From Candidatus Doudnabacteria bacterium (GTDB taxonomy: Bacteria > Patescibacteriota > Doudnabacteria > UBA920): a stretch of 64,000 bases of DNA. The first letter of the stretch is position 1. Each line of letters begins with the position of its first letter. The stretch covers positions 190,305-254,304 of the forward strand of contig CAVYGQ010000001.1 of NCBI GenBank assembly GCA_963768175.1, given 5' to 3'. A program made the translations under genes and the position numbers. This document shows positions 4,179 to 53,180 of this stretch, piece after piece. The notes beneath the pieces were generated by a model. The model ran no database searches. It worked only from the letters and a program-made list of their open reading frames with translations, and had not been told where the DNA came from.

Positions 4179-4260
4179 TTTAATTTTGATAGACTGAAGT
4201 CCGCCGTAGCCTTGGCGAAAGCGGAGAGGTCAAATAAATCAAGCTAATTAATACAAAATA

Positions 4261-4290
4261 AAAGCCGCCACCCATAGGGTGGCGGCTTTT
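4261..4290. terminator. bidirectional hairpin terminator (SIMPL gene on +, rnpB on -)
   Basis: aaagccgccaccc-atag-ggtggcggctttt perfect 13-bp stem flanked by A/T runs. Confidence 0.6.
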
Positions 4291-4292
4291 AT

Positions 4293-4707
4293 GCCCTAAG
4301 CAAACTCGTAAGCCGAATTCTGTTTAACACCCTGTTAAATAATTTGCCGAAGGCAAATTGCCGCATAGCGGCATTTAATAGGGTAAATAATCATCTATCT
4401 TGTCCAAGTATTGCTACATGGATCTAGCAGCCTACCAAATTTGGCTTTGCACTCAAGTAAGGATTTAGCCGTTTCATCCCTCGACTTCGCTCGGGACCTT
4501 ACGGCCCCGGCTTATACGAAAGTTAATCCAAAATTGGATTCTTGATTCCTTTCGGTCACAAGCGTCTCTGTTCGCACCTCGCGCCTTGCGGCGGACGGGA
4601 GTTACCCGCTACCATTGCTGATGGGCTCTATAGGGGACCATCAACTAAGTGTTCGGACTTTCCTATCTCTGGATTGACCAAAGATTGATTATTCGGTTTG
4701 CTTAGAG
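4293..4707 (-). ncRNA. rnpB: RNase P RNA (bacterial type A-like)
   Basis: Minus-strand reading gives P4 5' strand AGGAAAGTCCGAACAC, GAGGGATGAAACGG (P10-12 region), P4 3' strand ACAGAATTCGGCTTACGAG, and a P1 helix CTAAGCAAAC/GTTTGCTTAG joining the ends; no ORF in this 600-bp gap. Confidence 0.8.
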
Positions 4708-13885: not shown

Positions 13886-14941
13886 ATGCAAATTAAGGAA
13901 AATGAACTATTAGCCCCATATACCACATTTAAAATTGGCGGGCCGGCCAGGTGGTTTTGTGTTGCAAAAAATCAATCTGACGTTTTGCAAGCTTTTGAAT
14001 TTGCCAAAGAAAAAGGGATTAAGACTTTTGTTTTGGGGGGTGGCAGCAATATTTTGGTTAGTGATGAAGGATTTGACGGGTTGGTAATAAAGATTGTAAA
14101 CAAAGGCATGGAAATTTTATTGCAAGATAGAAACCAAATATTAATTAAAGTCGCTTCCGGCGAAGTTTGGGACGAAGTAGTAAAATTTGTCGTGGAAAAT
14201 AATTGGTGGGGGATAGAGAATTTGTCCCATATTCCCGGCTCAACCGGTGCTATTGCCGTGCAAAACGTGGGCGCTTACGGACAGGAGGCCAGCCGGGTTA
14301 TTGAATCAGTTATGGCTTTTGACAAAGAAACCCAAAACATCGAAAATTTTAAAAATAGCGGTTGCGGCTTTGGTTATCGGCAAAGCATTTTTAATTCCTC
14401 GAGAAAGGAGAAATATATAATTTTTAATATTACTTTTAGATTGTCTAAGACTGGAAATCCAAATTTAGAATACCGCGATCTGAAAGCAAAATTTGACGGC
14501 AAAAACCCGTCGCTTGGTGAAATTAGACGGGCGATAATTGAAATTCGGGATAAAAAGTTTCCTTTTCCTGTTGAGGCAAAAAACGGCAATGCCGGATCAT
14601 TTTTCAAAAATCCGGTTTTAAATCCTGATGGATATCGGCAGCTGCATGCTAAAGTTACTGCCGAGTTTGGCAAGCGGGCGTCAGATGGCTTGGATAAATG
14701 GAAGTTTGACGATAAAAGACAGGTCAAAGTACCAGCCGCCTATTTAATAGAATTATGCGGCTTAAAGGATATGCAAAGCGGGGGTGCGGCAATAAATAAA
14801 AACCAGCCTTTGGTAATAATCAATCAAACCGGAAAGGCCACCGCCCAAGATGTTTTAAATTTAGCCGACCAAGTCAGGCAAACGGTATTAACAAAGACCG
14901 GAATTGAACTTAGGTTTGAGCCTGAATTGGTTGGGTTTTAG
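13886..14941 (+). CDS. murB: UDP-N-acetylenolpyruvoylglucosamine reductase
   Basis: FKIGGPARWF...FVLGGGSNILVSDEGFDGLVI FAD-binding domain; C-terminal MurB domain. Confidence 0.85.
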   Translation: MQIKENELLAPYTTFKIGGPARWFCVAKNQSDVLQAFEFAKEKGIKTFVLGGGSNILVSDEGFDGLVIKIVNKGMEILLQDRNQILIKVASGEVWDEVVKFVVENNWWGIENLSHIPGSTGAIAVQNVGAYGQEASRVIESVMAFDKETQNIENFKNSGCGFGYRQSIFNSSRKEKYIIFNITFRLSKTGNPNLEYRDLKAKFDGKNPSLGEIRRAIIEIRDKKFPFPVEAKNGNAGSFFKNPVLNPDGYRQLHAKVTAEFGKRASDGLDKWKFDDKRQVKVPAAYLIELCGLKDMQSGGAAINKNQPLVIINQTGKATAQDVLNLADQVRQTVLTKTGIELRFEPELVGF

Positions 14942-14980
14942 AGAGTGGCCTAAAAAATATGATATAATTTAGAAGTAAAA

Positions 14981-15023
14981 GATCTGCGTTTATCCGCGTA
15001 GCAGATCCGCGAGAATATCCGCG
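14981..15023 (+). promoter_or_regulatory. inverted repeat GATCTGC/GCAGATC plus three direct ATCCGCG repeats (12-13 bp spacing) immediately upstream of hpf
   Basis: gatctgcgtttATCCGCGtagcagATCCGCGagaatATCCGCGtttc ATG. Confidence 0.3.
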
Positions 15024-15027
15024 TTTC

Positions 15028-15348
15028 ATGAATATCAATATCAAAGCTACTAACACAACCCTTACGCCTTCAATAAAGAGTTACATTGAAGAAAAATTAG
15101 ATGCGATCGCAAAATTTATCCGGCCGGAAGACAAAATCCGTATAGAGATAGAGGTTGATAAAAAACGCGCCAAGGAGCCGCATTTTAGAGCGGAAATAGA
15201 TATCCAGCCGCGCGGGCATTATGCCCAAGCGCGGGGATTAGATGTTTACGCCGCACTTGACTTGGTAATCCCGAAAATTAAGGAGCAACTAACTCGCCAA
15301 AAAGACAAACAGGTTAGTTTAAGGCGCAGGCGGACCAAGATACATTAA
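15028..15348 (+). CDS. hpf: ribosome hibernation-promoting factor (RaiA/HPF short form)
   Basis: [31 protein letters not shown]... typical HPF N-terminus, ~106 aa. Confidence 0.8.
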
Positions 15349-26774: not shown

Positions 26775-27668
26775 ATGTTTGACATTTTAAAGTATTACAA
26801 ATTTTTCTTCTGTGTTTCAGGAATAATTTTGCTTTTCGGGATTGTCTCCCTTTCGGTTTATCATTTGAAGCTCGGCGTAGATTTTAAGGGAGGCAGCCAA
26901 GTCCAGCTGCAGTTTAACCAGCCGGTTGATATTACCAAGGTCCAAGATGCCGTAAGATCGCAGAATTTAGGGAATTTTCAGCTACAAACGGCTTCCAATA
27001 ACGGTTTGATAATTGAGACGGAAAGTTTAAACAAAGACCAGCACGACCAGCTATTGGCTAAAATTCAGTCAACAGTGGGAAATTTTACGGAAACCGAGTA
27101 TACCACCATTGGCCCGGTCATTGGCAAACAACTGACGCAAAGCGCTTTTTGGCAACTTTTATTCGTTTCTTTAGGAATTGTTTTTTACATCGGCTACGCC
27201 TTCCGCAAGGTTACCAAGCCTGTTACTTCCTGGCGATTTGGTTGGGCGGCAGTTATCGCTTTACTCCACGACCTACTTTTTGTTTTGGGAGTTTTCTCTA
27301 TTTTGGGACATTTTAAAGGCGTAGAAATAGACAGCTTATTTGTCACCGCCATGCTCACAGTCTTGGGCTTTTCTGTCCACGATACCATTGTGGTTTTCGA
27401 CCGGATTAGAGAAAACTTGAGGGTTTACGCGGGGCAAAGCATTGAGTTTGTGGTTAACCACAGCATCAGCCAAACTTTAGTCAGGTCTTTAAATACCAGC
27501 TTAACCGTTTTGTTTGTTTTGCTAAGCTTACTGCTGTTTGGCGGTGAAACCATTAAATATTTTGTCTTTGCCTTATTTATTGGGATTATTGTGGGGACCT
27601 ACTCATCTATTTTTATCGCAAGCCCTGTGCTTGTGCTTTGGCAAAGGTGGAAAACAAAACAAATATAA
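26775..27668 (+). CDS. secF: protein translocase subunit SecF
   Basis: GVDFKGGSQVQLQF; SecF TM domain. Confidence 0.9.
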   Translation: MFDILKYYKFFFCVSGIILLFGIVSLSVYHLKLGVDFKGGSQVQLQFNQPVDITKVQDAVRSQNLGNFQLQTASNNGLIIETESLNKDQHDQLLAKIQSTVGNFTETEYTTIGPVIGKQLTQSAFWQLLFVSLGIVFYIGYAFRKVTKPVTSWRFGWAAVIALLHDLLFVLGVFSILGHFKGVEIDSLFVTAMLTVLGFSVHDTIVVFDRIRENLRVYAGQSIEFVVNHSISQTLVRSLNTSLTVLFVLLSLLLFGGETIKYFVFALFIGIIVGTYSSIFIASPVLVLWQRWKTKQI

Positions 27669-50167: not shown

Positions 50168-52402
50168 ATGTTCCAGAACAACATCAGAAATTTCTGCATC
50201 ATCGCTCATATTGACCACGGTAAGTCCACGCTGGCTGACCGGCTTTTGGAAATTACCCACACAGTCAGCAAGCGTGACATGAAGGACCAGCTGCTTGACC
50301 AAATGGATTTGGAACGGGAAAGGGGAATTACAATCAAGCTGCAACCTGTCAGAATGCAATATACGCTGACTAACACGGACAGTAAACGGACTAACGCGGA
50401 AGGCAATTTGTTATACGAGGATTTAACTTACAAGATAAGAGGGGCTGTATTTGAAGTCCGCAGGCAAATCGGCCCGGGCCATAAAGAAAGTGTTTACCAG
50501 AACGCCTTGGCTTTAGAGTTCAAAAAACGAAATATACCTTTTGAAAAGGAAAAACGCATTGATGTCTTGTATTACGATAAAAAAGTCGGCGTTTACCAAC
50601 CAGATTTTTTAATAGATAATAAAGTATTACTGGAAACCAAAGCTTTGTCATTTATTGGAAAGAATGAAGAGAGACAGGTTTGGCATTATTTAAAAGGTAC
50701 TCCATATAAACTCGCTCTATTAGTCAACTTCTCTTCTGCCGGCGCCGATATCAAACGGATTATTAATACTCCGTTACAGTCCATTTCCGAAAAGTCCGTT
50801 CCTAGTCCATCACCGTCAGTGTACACATTGAATTTAATTGATACGCCAGGGCATGTGGACTTTAGTTACGAAGTTTCGCGATCCCTTGCCTGCTGTGAAG
50901 GCGCAATTTTAGTCGTGGACAGCACGCAAGGCATAGAAGCCCAAACCTTGGCCAACGTCCACTTGGCACAGGAGCATAATTTGGTTTTAATCCCGGTGGT
51001 CAATAAAATAGATTTGCCAAACTCCGACCGTAAACAAACCGCGGAAGAACTAAAAACCGTTTTTGGCTTCACGGACAATGAAATACTTTACGCCTCGGGG
51101 AAGACCGGCGAAGGCGTGGAGGATATTTTAAAAGCGGTAATCAAAAAAGTTCCTCCTCCGGTCGGCGACGAACAAAAGCCGTTCCGCGGCCTGATTTTTG
51201 ACTCCATGTACGACATCCACCGCGGCGTGGTAATTTTTGTCCGCTGTTTTGACGGAGAATTAAAAAACCGAGAAAAAGTCTTTACCATCGGCAGCCAAAC
51301 CCAGTTTGAAAGTTTGGAGGTCGGATATTTCCATCCAAAAATGGAAAAGTCCGATGGAATAAAAACCGGCGAAGTCGGCTATATAGTCACCGGTTTGCGC
51401 GACGTCAGCAAGGCCCGCGTGGGCGACACTGTCACGCTGTATGATCGAAAAACCGATGTAAAACAACTGCCCGGCTACAAACACGTAAAGCCGATGGTTT
51501 ATGCCACCATTTTCCCGGTCAGCGGGGATGACTATCCGCTTTTGCGCGATGCCATGAACAAATTAAAGCTTTCCGATGCCGCGCTGGAATTTGAGCCGAT
51601 AAATATTCCTTCCATCGGCTTTGGTTTCCGCACAGGGTTTTTGGGGCTGCTTCATATGGACATTGTACAGGAGCGCCTGACCCGCGAATACAATTTGGAT
51701 TTAATTTTAACCGCGCCTTCGGTGGCTTACCATGTCGTGACAAGCAGCGGAAAAGATTTATACATCCACAACCCGGCGGAGTTTCCCGATCCGTCCATCA
51801 TAAAAGAGCTTTACGAGCCGTGGATGTCCGTAAATATTTTGGTGCCGCAAACTTACATTGGCCCGATTATGGAAATCGCCACCCAGCGCCGCGCCATTTC
51901 CAAAGACATAAAATATTTGGGCAAAAATCGCGTGGAAATGAATTTTGAAATGCCGCTGGCCAATATTATTTCCGATTTTTACGATAAGCTTAAATCCGTG
52001 TCCAGCGGTTATGCCAGTTTGAATTATGATTTAATTGAAGAGCGGGTAGGGGATTTGGTTAAAGTGGATATCTTGGTCGCCGGCGAGCCGGTAGTCGCGC
52101 TGTCGGCAATTATGCACCGTTTTACCGCTACCGCCGAAGGCAAGCAATTAGTGGAAAAACTTAAAACCTTAATTCCCAAACACCAGTTTGAGGTTGCCAT
52201 TCAGGCCGCAATTGGCGGTAAAATAATCGCCCGCGAAACCATCTCCGCCCTGCGCAAAGACGTTACCGGCTACCTTTATGGCGGCGACGTCACCCGCAAA
52301 ATGAAACTTTTAAATAAACAAAAACGCGGCAAAAAACGGATGAAGAGAATAGGTAAGGTGGATATTCCTCAGGAGGCATTCCTTGCTGTACTTAAAAAAT
52401 AA
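50168..52402 (+). CDS. lepA: elongation factor 4 (LepA) carrying an in-frame ~150-aa GxxExxY / PD-(D/E)xK-family domain insertion between switch I and the DTPGH G3 motif
   Basis: [22 protein letters not shown], then insertion ([35 protein letters not shown]...[16 protein letters not shown]...[19 protein letters not shown]), then [24 protein letters not shown] and the complete LepA C-terminus. Confidence 0.85.
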   Translation: [744 protein letters not shown]

Positions 52403-52411
52403 TGTTATAAT

Positions 52412-52654
52412 TTGTTCATGCTAGAAAGTGAATTTCAATATTATAAAGACCACCAAAAGGAACTCGTCGATAAATTTGAAGGTAAGTTTATCGTTATTAA
52501 AGGCGCCAAGGTGATCGGTGTATATGATACAGAAATTGAGGCCTATGAAGAAACCAAAAAAATTGAAGAACTTGGCACTTTTCTTATTCAGCAAGTTTTA
52601 CCGGGAACAGAAAGTTATACCCAAACTTTTCATTCCAGAGTTAGCGTAATATAA
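52412..52654 (+). CDS. small DUF5678-like protein (putative partner of the downstream aspartyl protease)
   Basis: 80 aa, ...KFEGKFIVIKGAKVIGVYDTEIEAYEETKK... pattern; 7-nt gap to the next gene. Confidence 0.4.
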   Translation: MFMLESEFQYYKDHQKELVDKFEGKFIVIKGAKVIGVYDTEIEAYEETKKIEELGTFLIQQVLPGTESYTQTFHSRVSVI

Positions 52655-52661
52655 TAAAATC

Positions 52662-53180
52662 ATGCCGGAAGCGCTTACCTTAAAAGCTAACGGAATTGCT
52701 AGAGTTTTAGTTTCCGAAGTTGGAGTATCAGAACCTTTAGGTAATCTTCAGCCAAATCAAACAATTCAAATAAAAAATTTCAGAGGGATTTGGGACACTG
52801 GGGCCACGGGATGTGTGATAACAAATAAAGTAGTATCGGATCTGGGTCTAAAGCCAATCGGTATGAGAGAAGTACATACCGCAAATGGAAAAGCAAACCA
52901 ACAGACTTACCTTGTTGACATTTATTTACCAAATAAGGTTCGCATTGTAAATTTAACCGTAACTGAGGCCTCGTTGCCTCAAAATACCGACTGCTTAATT
53001 GGAATGGATGTTATTACTTTGGGTGATTTTTGTATTACGAATTTGAATGGAAAAACGGTAATGTCTTTTAGAACTCCTTCTAGTGCCTGCATTGATTTTG
53101 TAGAGGAGTTAAAACTTAACGACCCGAATAGAATGAGCAGGCAGCAAAGAAGAGCGATGTTGAGAAAAAAAGGATTTTAA
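52662..53180 (+). CDS. retropepsin-like (clan AA) aspartyl protease
   Basis: Hydrophobic-hydrophobic-DTGA active-site motif IWDTGATGCVIT; ~170 aa single-lobe size. Confidence 0.6.
   Translation: MPEALTLKANGIARVLVSEVGVSEPLGNLQPNQTIQIKNFRGIWDTGATGCVITNKVVSDLGLKPIGMREVHTANGKANQQTYLVDIYLPNKVRIVNLTVTEASLPQNTDCLIGMDVITLGDFCITNLNGKTVMSFRTPSSACIDFVEELKLNDPNRMSRQQRRAMLRKKGF

Follow-up and report, generated by a model that had tools for sequence, protein, structure and literature searches.

Conserved genes are known to tolerate several kinds of inserted DNA. Inteins with a homing endonuclease are in-frame selfish insertions in conserved housekeeping proteins such as helicases and translation or replication factors. 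The Rickettsia palindromic elements (RPEs; Ogata et al. 2000) are, in the account given in PMC10969869, palindromes that lie in frame in many unrelated genes and are translated, and the resulting peptides are judged there to be compatible with the fold and function of the host protein. For a phage DNA methylase, the abstract of the source describes the ShiLan insertion as stop-free in the host frame, neither an intein nor an intron, and homing-like in its evolution; according to the prediction it loops out from its host, and its HNH endonuclease is a separate product of another frame (PMC11855218). Finally, the intervening sequences (IVSs) of 23S rRNA that hold an open reading frame (ORF) consist of a stem-forming inverted repeat around a small ORF and are sporadic and common in reduced genomes, including those of the candidate phyla radiation (CPR) (PMC11270868). 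These known insertions are the nearest precedents for the element described here, an insert in lepA, the gene of the essential translation factor LepA (EF4), in an ultra-small CPR bacterium. The gene lies in a stretch of 64,000 nucleotides from Candidatus Doudnabacteria (contig CAVYGQ010000001.1, positions 190,305 to 254,304), hereafter the window. Named homologues of the protein put the organism within the CPR / Patescibacteria and near Candidatus Doudnabacteria.

The best-supported reading of the insert is that it is selfish DNA, a cassette formed by a ~120-aa GxxExxY gene of the PD-(D/E)xK type between ~40-nt imperfect inverted repeats, which may be likened to the homing module of an intein without the splicing module. 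To the fuller reading, that the insert is a mobile nuclease cassette flanked by inverted repeats, which moves from one conserved gene to another and which host proteins tolerate as a loop domain that is translated permanently, we assign a probability of roughly 0.6.

Like inteins, the cassette carries a nuclease, is translated with its host and occupies a given site sporadically across orthologues, but it has neither a Hint domain nor junction residues and apparently stays in the mature protein. Moreover, its nuclease is of the PD-(D/E)xK GxxExxY type and not LAGLIDADG or HNH, it has inverted-repeat arms, and it sits in loops between motifs instead of inside active-site motifs. With RPEs it shares palindromic or inverted-repeat DNA that lies in frame in many unrelated protein-coding genes, translated and tolerated. 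RPEs, however, measure ~100-150 bp and hold no enzyme, whereas the cassette spans ~450 bp with a complete conserved nuclease between its arms, comes from another lineage (CPR) and another repeat family, and is not an RPE member. The ShiLan insertion is likewise non-splicing, homing-like and stop-free in the host frame; its HNH gene is out of frame according to the abstract, which does not mention flanking inverted repeats (PMC11855218), whereas the nuclease of the cassette stands in the host frame and would be produced solely as one domain of its host. The 23S rRNA IVSs also combine a stem-forming repeat and an ORF in a conserved essential gene with a sporadic distribution, but they lie in rRNA, are excised by RNase III and encode a four-helix-bundle protein, whereas the cassette lies in protein-coding genes, is read through in frame and gives no sign of a selected sense-RNA stem.

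A nuclease domain inside the LepA G domain

The lepA gene of the window is one unbroken ORF of 744 aa (coordinates of all features are given in Table 1). The NCBIfam model TIGR01393 matched it with 867 bits (cut-off 533.9), in two stretches separated by the insert, and Pfam found GTP_EFTU, GTP_EFTU_D2, EFG_C and LepA_C. When the protein was aligned with 14 insert-less orthologues, G1, switch I and G3 were invariant and the extra segment fell in the turn of the beta2-beta3 hairpin of the G domain, with both strands kept. The net insertion amounts to ~149 aa (roughly aa 68-216, ~50369-50815 in the window); it is in frame with LepA on both sides, contains no stop codon and has no start or stop codon of its own. 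Between the two GTP_EFTU stretches and upstream of LepA_C, residues 85-198 matched PF13366 PDDEXK_3 (profile positions 2-117 of 117; 111.8 bits, cut-off 22; E 3e-32), and TIGR04256 GxxExxY matched over its full length (1-116 of 116; 116.4 bits, cut-off 35; E 8e-34). The insert also differs in composition from its host: a GC trough at 50400-50800 (0.32-0.39 vs 0.45-0.53 elsewhere in lepA) coincides with it, GC at third codon positions is 0.37 in the nuclease domain and 0.555 in the host LepA, and the GC of the insert was below that of the host in 78 of 78 related loci.

An earlier note, made from the letters of the window alone, had already placed an in-frame GxxExxY / PD-(D/E)xK domain in the LepA G domain at 50363-50821 and had held the LepA motifs to be intact. 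The two full-length profile matches, the invariant motifs of the alignment and the presence of LepA_C agree with this, and the bounds are essentially right. The note had read SLAACEGA in the G3 region, where the actual sequence is SLACCEGA. It had also taken ~20 residues to be replaced by ~150 aa; the size holds but the replacement does not, as beta2 and beta3 are both kept. Nor does the length conservation that the note had assumed for LepA G domains extend to the beta2-beta3 loop of CPR LepAs, which carries 0-35 extra residues in insert-less relatives.

We modelled the domain with AlphaFold2 (AF2) from 42 free-standing homologues. The model had a predicted local distance difference test score (pLDDT) above 94 and the topology alpha-alpha-beta5-alpha-beta2, with both linkers at low confidence (pLDDT 52-69). 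Its Foldseek matches were PD-(D/E)xK nucleases only, all of them weak, and comprised lambda exonuclease, Cas4 and MGME1 as the top hits (TM 0.3-0.44), R2 endonuclease, splicing endonucleases, I-Bth0305I and Hjc. A sequence profile search of the PDB gave only marginal matches to T7 endonuclease I (E 0.15), which we regard as a lead for structure-specific cleavage and not as evidence. The full PD-(D/E)xK constellation (the E of GxxExxY, PD and ExK) is present in the window copy as E107, D146, E156 and K158, and the putative catalytic positions of the domain (E27, D66, E76 and K78) together with six others were invariant in 81 of 81 copies, for two of them partly by construction (see below). These invariant residues and a dN/dS of ~0.06 in the sole pair with a computable dS (dS being saturated in all others) suggest purifying selection on the domain. 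No biochemically characterised member of the GxxExxY / PDDEXK_3 family was apparent in the searchable literature.

Hosts, arms and evolution of the cassette

We searched the insert against 1.84 billion representative proteins and scanned one genome per GTDB species, which yielded 431 relatives; raw stop-to-stop frames were analysed in the best 80 loci. The domain lies at the same place in five more LepA clusters (P0003, P0025, P0045, P0048 and P0055, 67-75% identical overall), the insert being present in six of the 120 best LepA matches (clusters); the closest LepAs, P0002 and P0004 (91-93% identical over the whole-protein alignment), are without it. Among 46 protein matches below 1e-30, 39 were at least 200 aa long, and ~35 of those were internal segments of long host proteins, identified with Pfam as RtcB, GT2 glycosyltransferases, Wzy_C, RecG, LepA, EF-Tu-type GTPases, DHFR, LeuRS and GatB. 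In the genome census the domain was in frame within a stop-free ORF of 500-1200 aa in 79 of the 80 loci, and since raw stop-to-stop frames were used, this embedding is free of gene-caller bias.

Approximately 34 of the 80 loci represent the same LepA hairpin, in ~34 species-level genomes from independent assemblies, and ~36 represent RecG, with the insert between the DEQHRFG and TATPIPR motifs; the other hosts were LeuRS, a ValRS-type synthetase, SecA, Wzy and GT2. Many CPR copies have neither their own start codon nor their own stop codon and are embedded, in frame, within loops of conserved housekeeping proteins. The same LepA site is occupied across many CPR phyla and in-frame cassettes occur in at least ten other host protein families. 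A second LepA site was found at the domain II/III junction (IGDTL / LPGYKEPKP; L022, 1918-4389) and a second RecG site in the wedge domain (L044, 2521-5136). One glycosyltransferase-like ORF of 862 aa (L077, 1876-4461) carries two separate PDDEXK_3 insertions (178 bits in two stretches), and three metagenome-assembled genomes (MAGs) each hold two copies, with LepA hosting one and RecG the other. The window itself holds one copy only: tblastn found no second one in the 64 kb, and a match at 26853-27074 (E 0.81) was discarded as spurious, within a SecF-like membrane protein.

The domain is accompanied by low-complexity flanks in all inserts (TQTDAD or RTNAE upstream, QRQSAS or PRKSAS downstream), and at the DNA level the upstream and downstream flanks are reverse complements of each other. 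We aligned the 120 nt upstream locally to the reverse complement of the downstream flank and scored the result against shuffles. The score exceeded z 3 in 55 of the 80 loci and z 5 in 42, and a direct-orientation control remained at shuffle level; terminal inverted repeats, as in transposons with such ends or elements resembling miniature inverted-repeat transposable elements, are therefore found across the family, and weakly in the window copy taken alone (z 2.7). The arms are ~40 nt long, imperfect and directly adjoin the domain. Their unit, ACGC(A/G)GA(C/T), is ~15-100-fold enriched relative to host sequence, with ~2.8 units per arm, and takes the form of phased ACGCGGAC units whose spacing peaks at 10 nt (151 cases), followed by 11 (44) and 12 (32), with a harmonic at 21. 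A period of 10 nt corresponds to one helical turn and cannot be divided by three, so the periodicity belongs to the nucleic acid, read in shifting frames, and not to the protein. Arm mismatches on the sense strand were G-U-compatible in 65 cases and A-C in 168; the lack of any bias toward G-U favours a DNA-level role over a maintained mRNA stem. The reading that we favour is that the arms are terminal inverted repeats or arrays of protein-binding sites.

In the window, the left arm holds three ~8-nt AC(G/A)C(G/T)GA(C/A) units that start at 50363, 50373 and 50394 (50363-50401), the first of them just upstream of the annotated start of the arm, and their inverted partners lie at 50767-50822. RNAfold closed the insert by a terminal stem (z -2.98). 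Both junctions of this copy read Y-T-L (TATACGCTG / TACACATTG), which is not conserved in the related locus L002.

GxxExxY genes also occur on their own. The free-standing copies share the domain at 45-62% identity (55-62% to the insert for genes of 132-150 aa), with the same catalytic motifs, have their own start and stop codons and are located between unrelated genes. A reading of them as split host genes was rejected because their neighbouring ORFs are unrelated, which makes these copies truly free-standing. Inverted repeats flank them in CPR, in the gammaproteobacterium Oceanisphaera and in one Bacteroidetes genome. The repeats of Oceanisphaera avium CP021376 (L089) consist of CACGGAATA-type units, the same motif as in the CPR copies, and lie 150-200 nt from the gene; the Bacteroidetes MAG (L090) has, also 150-200 nt away, a near-perfect 37-nt repeat of a different unit that is seemingly duplicated on both sides. 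As free-standing copies are arm-flanked too, the arms are intrinsic to the GxxExxY cassette. The free-standing genes therefore share domain, catalytic motifs and arms with the window copy, but the latter has no start or stop codon and is fused to LepA on both sides. Many proteins of ~265 aa (P0152, P0157, P0165, P0169 and others) consist of two tandem GxxExxY domains (two hidden Markov model stretches). This hints at a fused pseudo-dimer and hence at a family that works as dimers, for which the phased arm repeats may be candidate docking sites.

Next, we compared the evolution of the insert with that of its hosts. Mean conservation was 0.61 for the domain, 0.52 for LepA and 0.48 for RecG. The pairwise identities of insert and host were weakly correlated (Spearman 0.16 for LepA and 0.22 for RecG), compared with 0.39-0.72 for forty random 119-aa host segments used as controls. 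The window insert is closest to a Yanofskybacteria copy, with domains 76% identical in LepAs that are 54% identical, and Doudnabacteria LepAs 69-77% identical carry inserts 68-73% identical. Estimated by the Nei-Gojobori method, dN in cross-phylum pairs was 0.07-0.15 for the insert and 0.30-0.54 for the host, and in Doudnabacteria pairs the two were about equal, a pattern that fits vertical descent inside clades with horizontal movement between distant alleles. The distribution is as expected of an element driven by a homing endonuclease, sporadic at one homologous site and with incongruent insert and host phylogenies.

Weighing the mobile-cassette reading against its alternatives

What speaks for a mobile cassette is the anatomy of the insert, its in-frame embedding, the reuse of sites, the inverted-repeat arms, the intact active site, the patchy distribution and the incongruence of host and insert. 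In the mechanism that we propose, the cassette would be transcribed and translated as part of LepA and the nuclease expressed only within the host protein. The repeat arms would be read as hydrophilic disordered linkers, from which the nuclease would fold as an independent module off the beta2-beta3 hairpin, leaving EF4 functional. The embedded nuclease, probably a dimer and possibly docked on the phased arm repeats, would then make a DNA break by which empty alleles of this conserved site acquire a copy of the cassette (homing), with new sites reached more rarely. The survivors would be only those insertions that are in frame in permissive loops of essential genes, where, we propose, imprecise deletion is lethal and the element is therefore kept in place.

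Several points weigh against this reading. Nuclease activity, its target, homing or mobility, and the retention of the insert in the mature protein are all things that we infer. That D66 and E27 are invariant is in part a product of the locus search, whose peptide patterns contained PDF and KE. Within the insert, the AF2 model of the full-length protein is of low quality (pLDDT <50), because only six sequences cover this segment, and thus lends no support to the predicted projection of the insert from the G domain or to its compatibility with ribosome binding. The arms of the window copy are degenerate, so this copy may no longer be mobile. We saw no clear target-site duplication. We did not find a closely related pair of filled and empty alleles with clean breakpoints, the nearest empty site being ~84% identical at the nucleotide level. 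The weak correlation between host and insert could come in part from the narrow identity range of a constrained domain, and the equal dN within Doudnabacteria is just as compatible with long vertical inheritance and losses as with homing. Finally, the active site is retained universally, unlike in the many intein endonucleases that decay. This is the chief finding for which a purely selfish model offers no full account, and it could point to a role that benefits the host.

Two alternatives accept that the segment is part of the protein and differ in what keeps it there. It could be an ancient immobile passenger that entered LepA, RecG and other CPR proteins long ago, has since been inherited vertically as neutral decoration with repeated in-frame loss, and whose nuclease is irrelevant today. 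The matching dN of insert and host within Doudnabacteria, the decayed arms of the window copy and the widely varying lengths of the empty LepA loops, some of them palindromic and possibly deletion scars, are what such a history would leave. A neutral passenger is expected to decay, however, whereas the putative catalytic and six other positions are invariant in the 81 copies and the domain is on average better conserved than LepA or RecG; the cross-phylum dN of the insert is also far below that of the host, and the insert-host correlation is lower than for every control segment. We thus consider the passenger unlikely. A shade less likely still is a domesticated module, in which the embedded nuclease is useful to the host (by tethered cleavage or binding, in defence or quality control) and is kept for that use. 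An active site kept everywhere and the many hosts that work on nucleic acids or on the ribosome (LepA, RecG, aminoacyl-tRNA synthetases, RtcB, GatB) would suit it, but a tethered nuclease has no obvious role in SecA, DHFR, GT2 or the O-antigen ligase Wzy_C, which belongs to a membrane-protein family, each host has close relatives that do without the insert, and the inverted-repeat arms and the free-standing arm-flanked paralogues point to an element and not to an adaptive fusion.

The other two alternatives deny that the segment is a lasting part of LepA. Removal before maturation by unrecognised RNA or protein splicing or by translational bypass, for instance by an RNase III cut in the stem followed by religation, seems very improbable to us. 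The flanks can indeed pair into a long terminal stem (z -2.98), and the layout of stem plus ORF is the same as in the IVS elements of 23S rRNA (PMC11270868). Against this, the stop-free continuity on both sides in 79 of the 80 copies would be unexplained if the segment were cut from the RNA and argues against removal at that level. A selected sense-RNA stem of the IVS / RNase III type was rejected, since the mismatch test (65 G-U-compatible vs 168 A-C) went opposite to its expectation. We also rejected an intein, with no Hint or intein family at E<=0.01 in Pfam and variable boundaries (TNTD / SPSPSV) that share no junction residues among six LepA copies, and a group I or II intron or other Rfam RNA, with a single tRNA at gathering threshold in the window and no match at E<=1 in 50250-50950; the element has only ~90 nt outside the nuclease ORF. 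Nor does translational bypass agree with the sequence, as there is no stop after the take-off codon, the junction codons differ between the window copy and L002, and neither a stop codon nor matched take-off and landing codons are conserved between the two. That the insert is an artefact of assembly or annotation (for example, a chimeric contig or a frameshift) is hardly credible: for LepA alone, independent assemblies of ~34 species show the identical architecture, a 949-kb contig is the recorded source of the protein, and our analysis found no evidence in favour of an artefact.

These results also bear on how the earlier note had interpreted the insert. Its statement that intein junction residues are absent is borne out by the variable low-complexity boundaries of the six LepA copies and the missing Hint/intein signature. 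As to removal by a splicing element, which it had named as a possibility to exclude, the families checked gave neither a Hint/intein match in Pfam nor an intron match in Rfam. A single lineage-specific capture of a stand-alone gene, in contrast, is contradicted by the occupation of the same LepA site in many CPR phyla and of at least ten other host families, by the arms held in common with free-standing cassettes and by the decoupled phylogenies of insert and host. The alignment of orthologues that it had proposed as a check on lineage specificity revealed five further LepA clusters filled at the same place, with the closest LepAs empty. A gain of nucleic-acid binding by the host is made unlikely by hosts as unrelated as SecA, DHFR, glycosyltransferases and the O-antigen ligase; the other half of that inference, an insert tolerated in a surface loop, fares better, the insert lying in a loop with disordered linkers.

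Returning to the mobile cassette, we tentatively extend it, at somewhat less than even odds, to a class of bacterial selfish element that would be undescribed. GxxExxY cassettes may be 'splicing-free inteins' that home or transpose while embedded, catalytically active, in essential proteins; they may be a significant source of large insertions in CPR proteins, with the arms as docking sites and the palindromes of empty alleles (see below) as footprints or non-autonomous derivatives. We found no description of GxxExxY cassettes, of their arms or of their in-frame insertion in CPR proteins in the literature. If correct, a selfish element could survive in essential genes without splicing, by means of permissive loops and arms that double as flexible linkers. 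The abundant and uncharacterised GxxExxY family would gain a biological role, some unexplained insertions in CPR housekeeping proteins would be accounted for, and annotators would be warned that such 'fusions' are elements and not new functions. The cassettes would also provide a natural map of insertion-tolerant sites in LepA, RecG, SecA and aminoacyl-tRNA synthetases, and a compact nuclease that may be sequence-specific and for which a candidate recognition motif is at hand.

Features of the locus and further observations

Table 1. Positions in the window of lepA, of the parts of its insert and of a separate arm-motif array.
Feature	Position	Strand	Evidence
lepA (EF4), 744 aa, insertion host	50168..52402	+	ORF; TIGR01393 867 bits; 91-93% identity to insert-less Doudnabacteria-type LepAs
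LepA G domain, N-terminal part: G1 AHIDHGKST, switch I, beta2 ending VRMQYTL	50168..50368	+	Alignment; AF2 strand E61-67
Left arm, translated as a linker	50369..50407	+	Motif scan; direct repeat D3 GACTAACACGGA / GACTAACGCGGA; RNAfold pairing with 50770-50835
GxxExxY / PDDEXK_3 nuclease domain, aa 81-199	50408..50764	+	PF13366, TIGR04256, AF2, Foldseek
Candidate catalytic residues E107, D146, E156, K158	50486-50488; 50603-50605; 50633-50635; 50639-50641	+	Invariant in 81 copies
Right arm, translated as a linker, degenerate inverted copy of the left arm (units TCCGTT, AGTCCGTT, CCGTCAGT)	50765..50815	+	Inverted repeats I8, I7, I2; direct repeat D4
LepA remainder: beta3 and G3, G4, G5, domains II, III, V, LepA_C	50816..52402	+	Pfam, NCBIfam, alignment
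Solo array, four ATC(T/C)GCG(T) units (arm motif reversed), not part of the LepA element	14980..15027	.	Motif cluster

Some insert-less LepAs with extended beta2-beta3 loops hold other short in-frame palindromes. In L001 (P0002) we found GCACGCC-GT-GGCGTGC and CGGCATGCCG within 4180-4300, and in L087 (P0113) arrays of CCAAT / ATTGG; the fold z of these palindromic loops was -4.9 and -3.7, respectively. The minimal-loop allele L083 has no such palindromes. These short loops are a closer analogue of RPEs than the cassette is, and the beta2-beta3 hairpin resembles a hot spot where RPE-like palindromes insert or excisions leave footprints.

Several MAGs with CPR-type LepA or RecG inserts (L014, L018, L020, L033, L039, L044, L048 and L049) are labelled Gammaproteobacteria, Bdellovibrionales, Spirochaetia or Nanoarchaeota in their records. 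The non-CPR labels probably reflect mis-binning or mislabelling rather than true hosts.

The solo tandem array of arm motifs follows a MurB-like gene (13886-14941) in the intergenic spacer and immediately precedes the start codon of an hpf/RaiA-like gene (15028-15348). It could represent what is left of an element, an arm that is non-autonomous, or a regulatory site to which the same factor binds. Downstream of lepA, a small ORF of 80 aa (52412-52654) is followed by one of 172 aa (52662-53180, plus strand), which holds a DTGA motif (IWDTGATGCVI) typical of retropepsin-like aspartic proteases.

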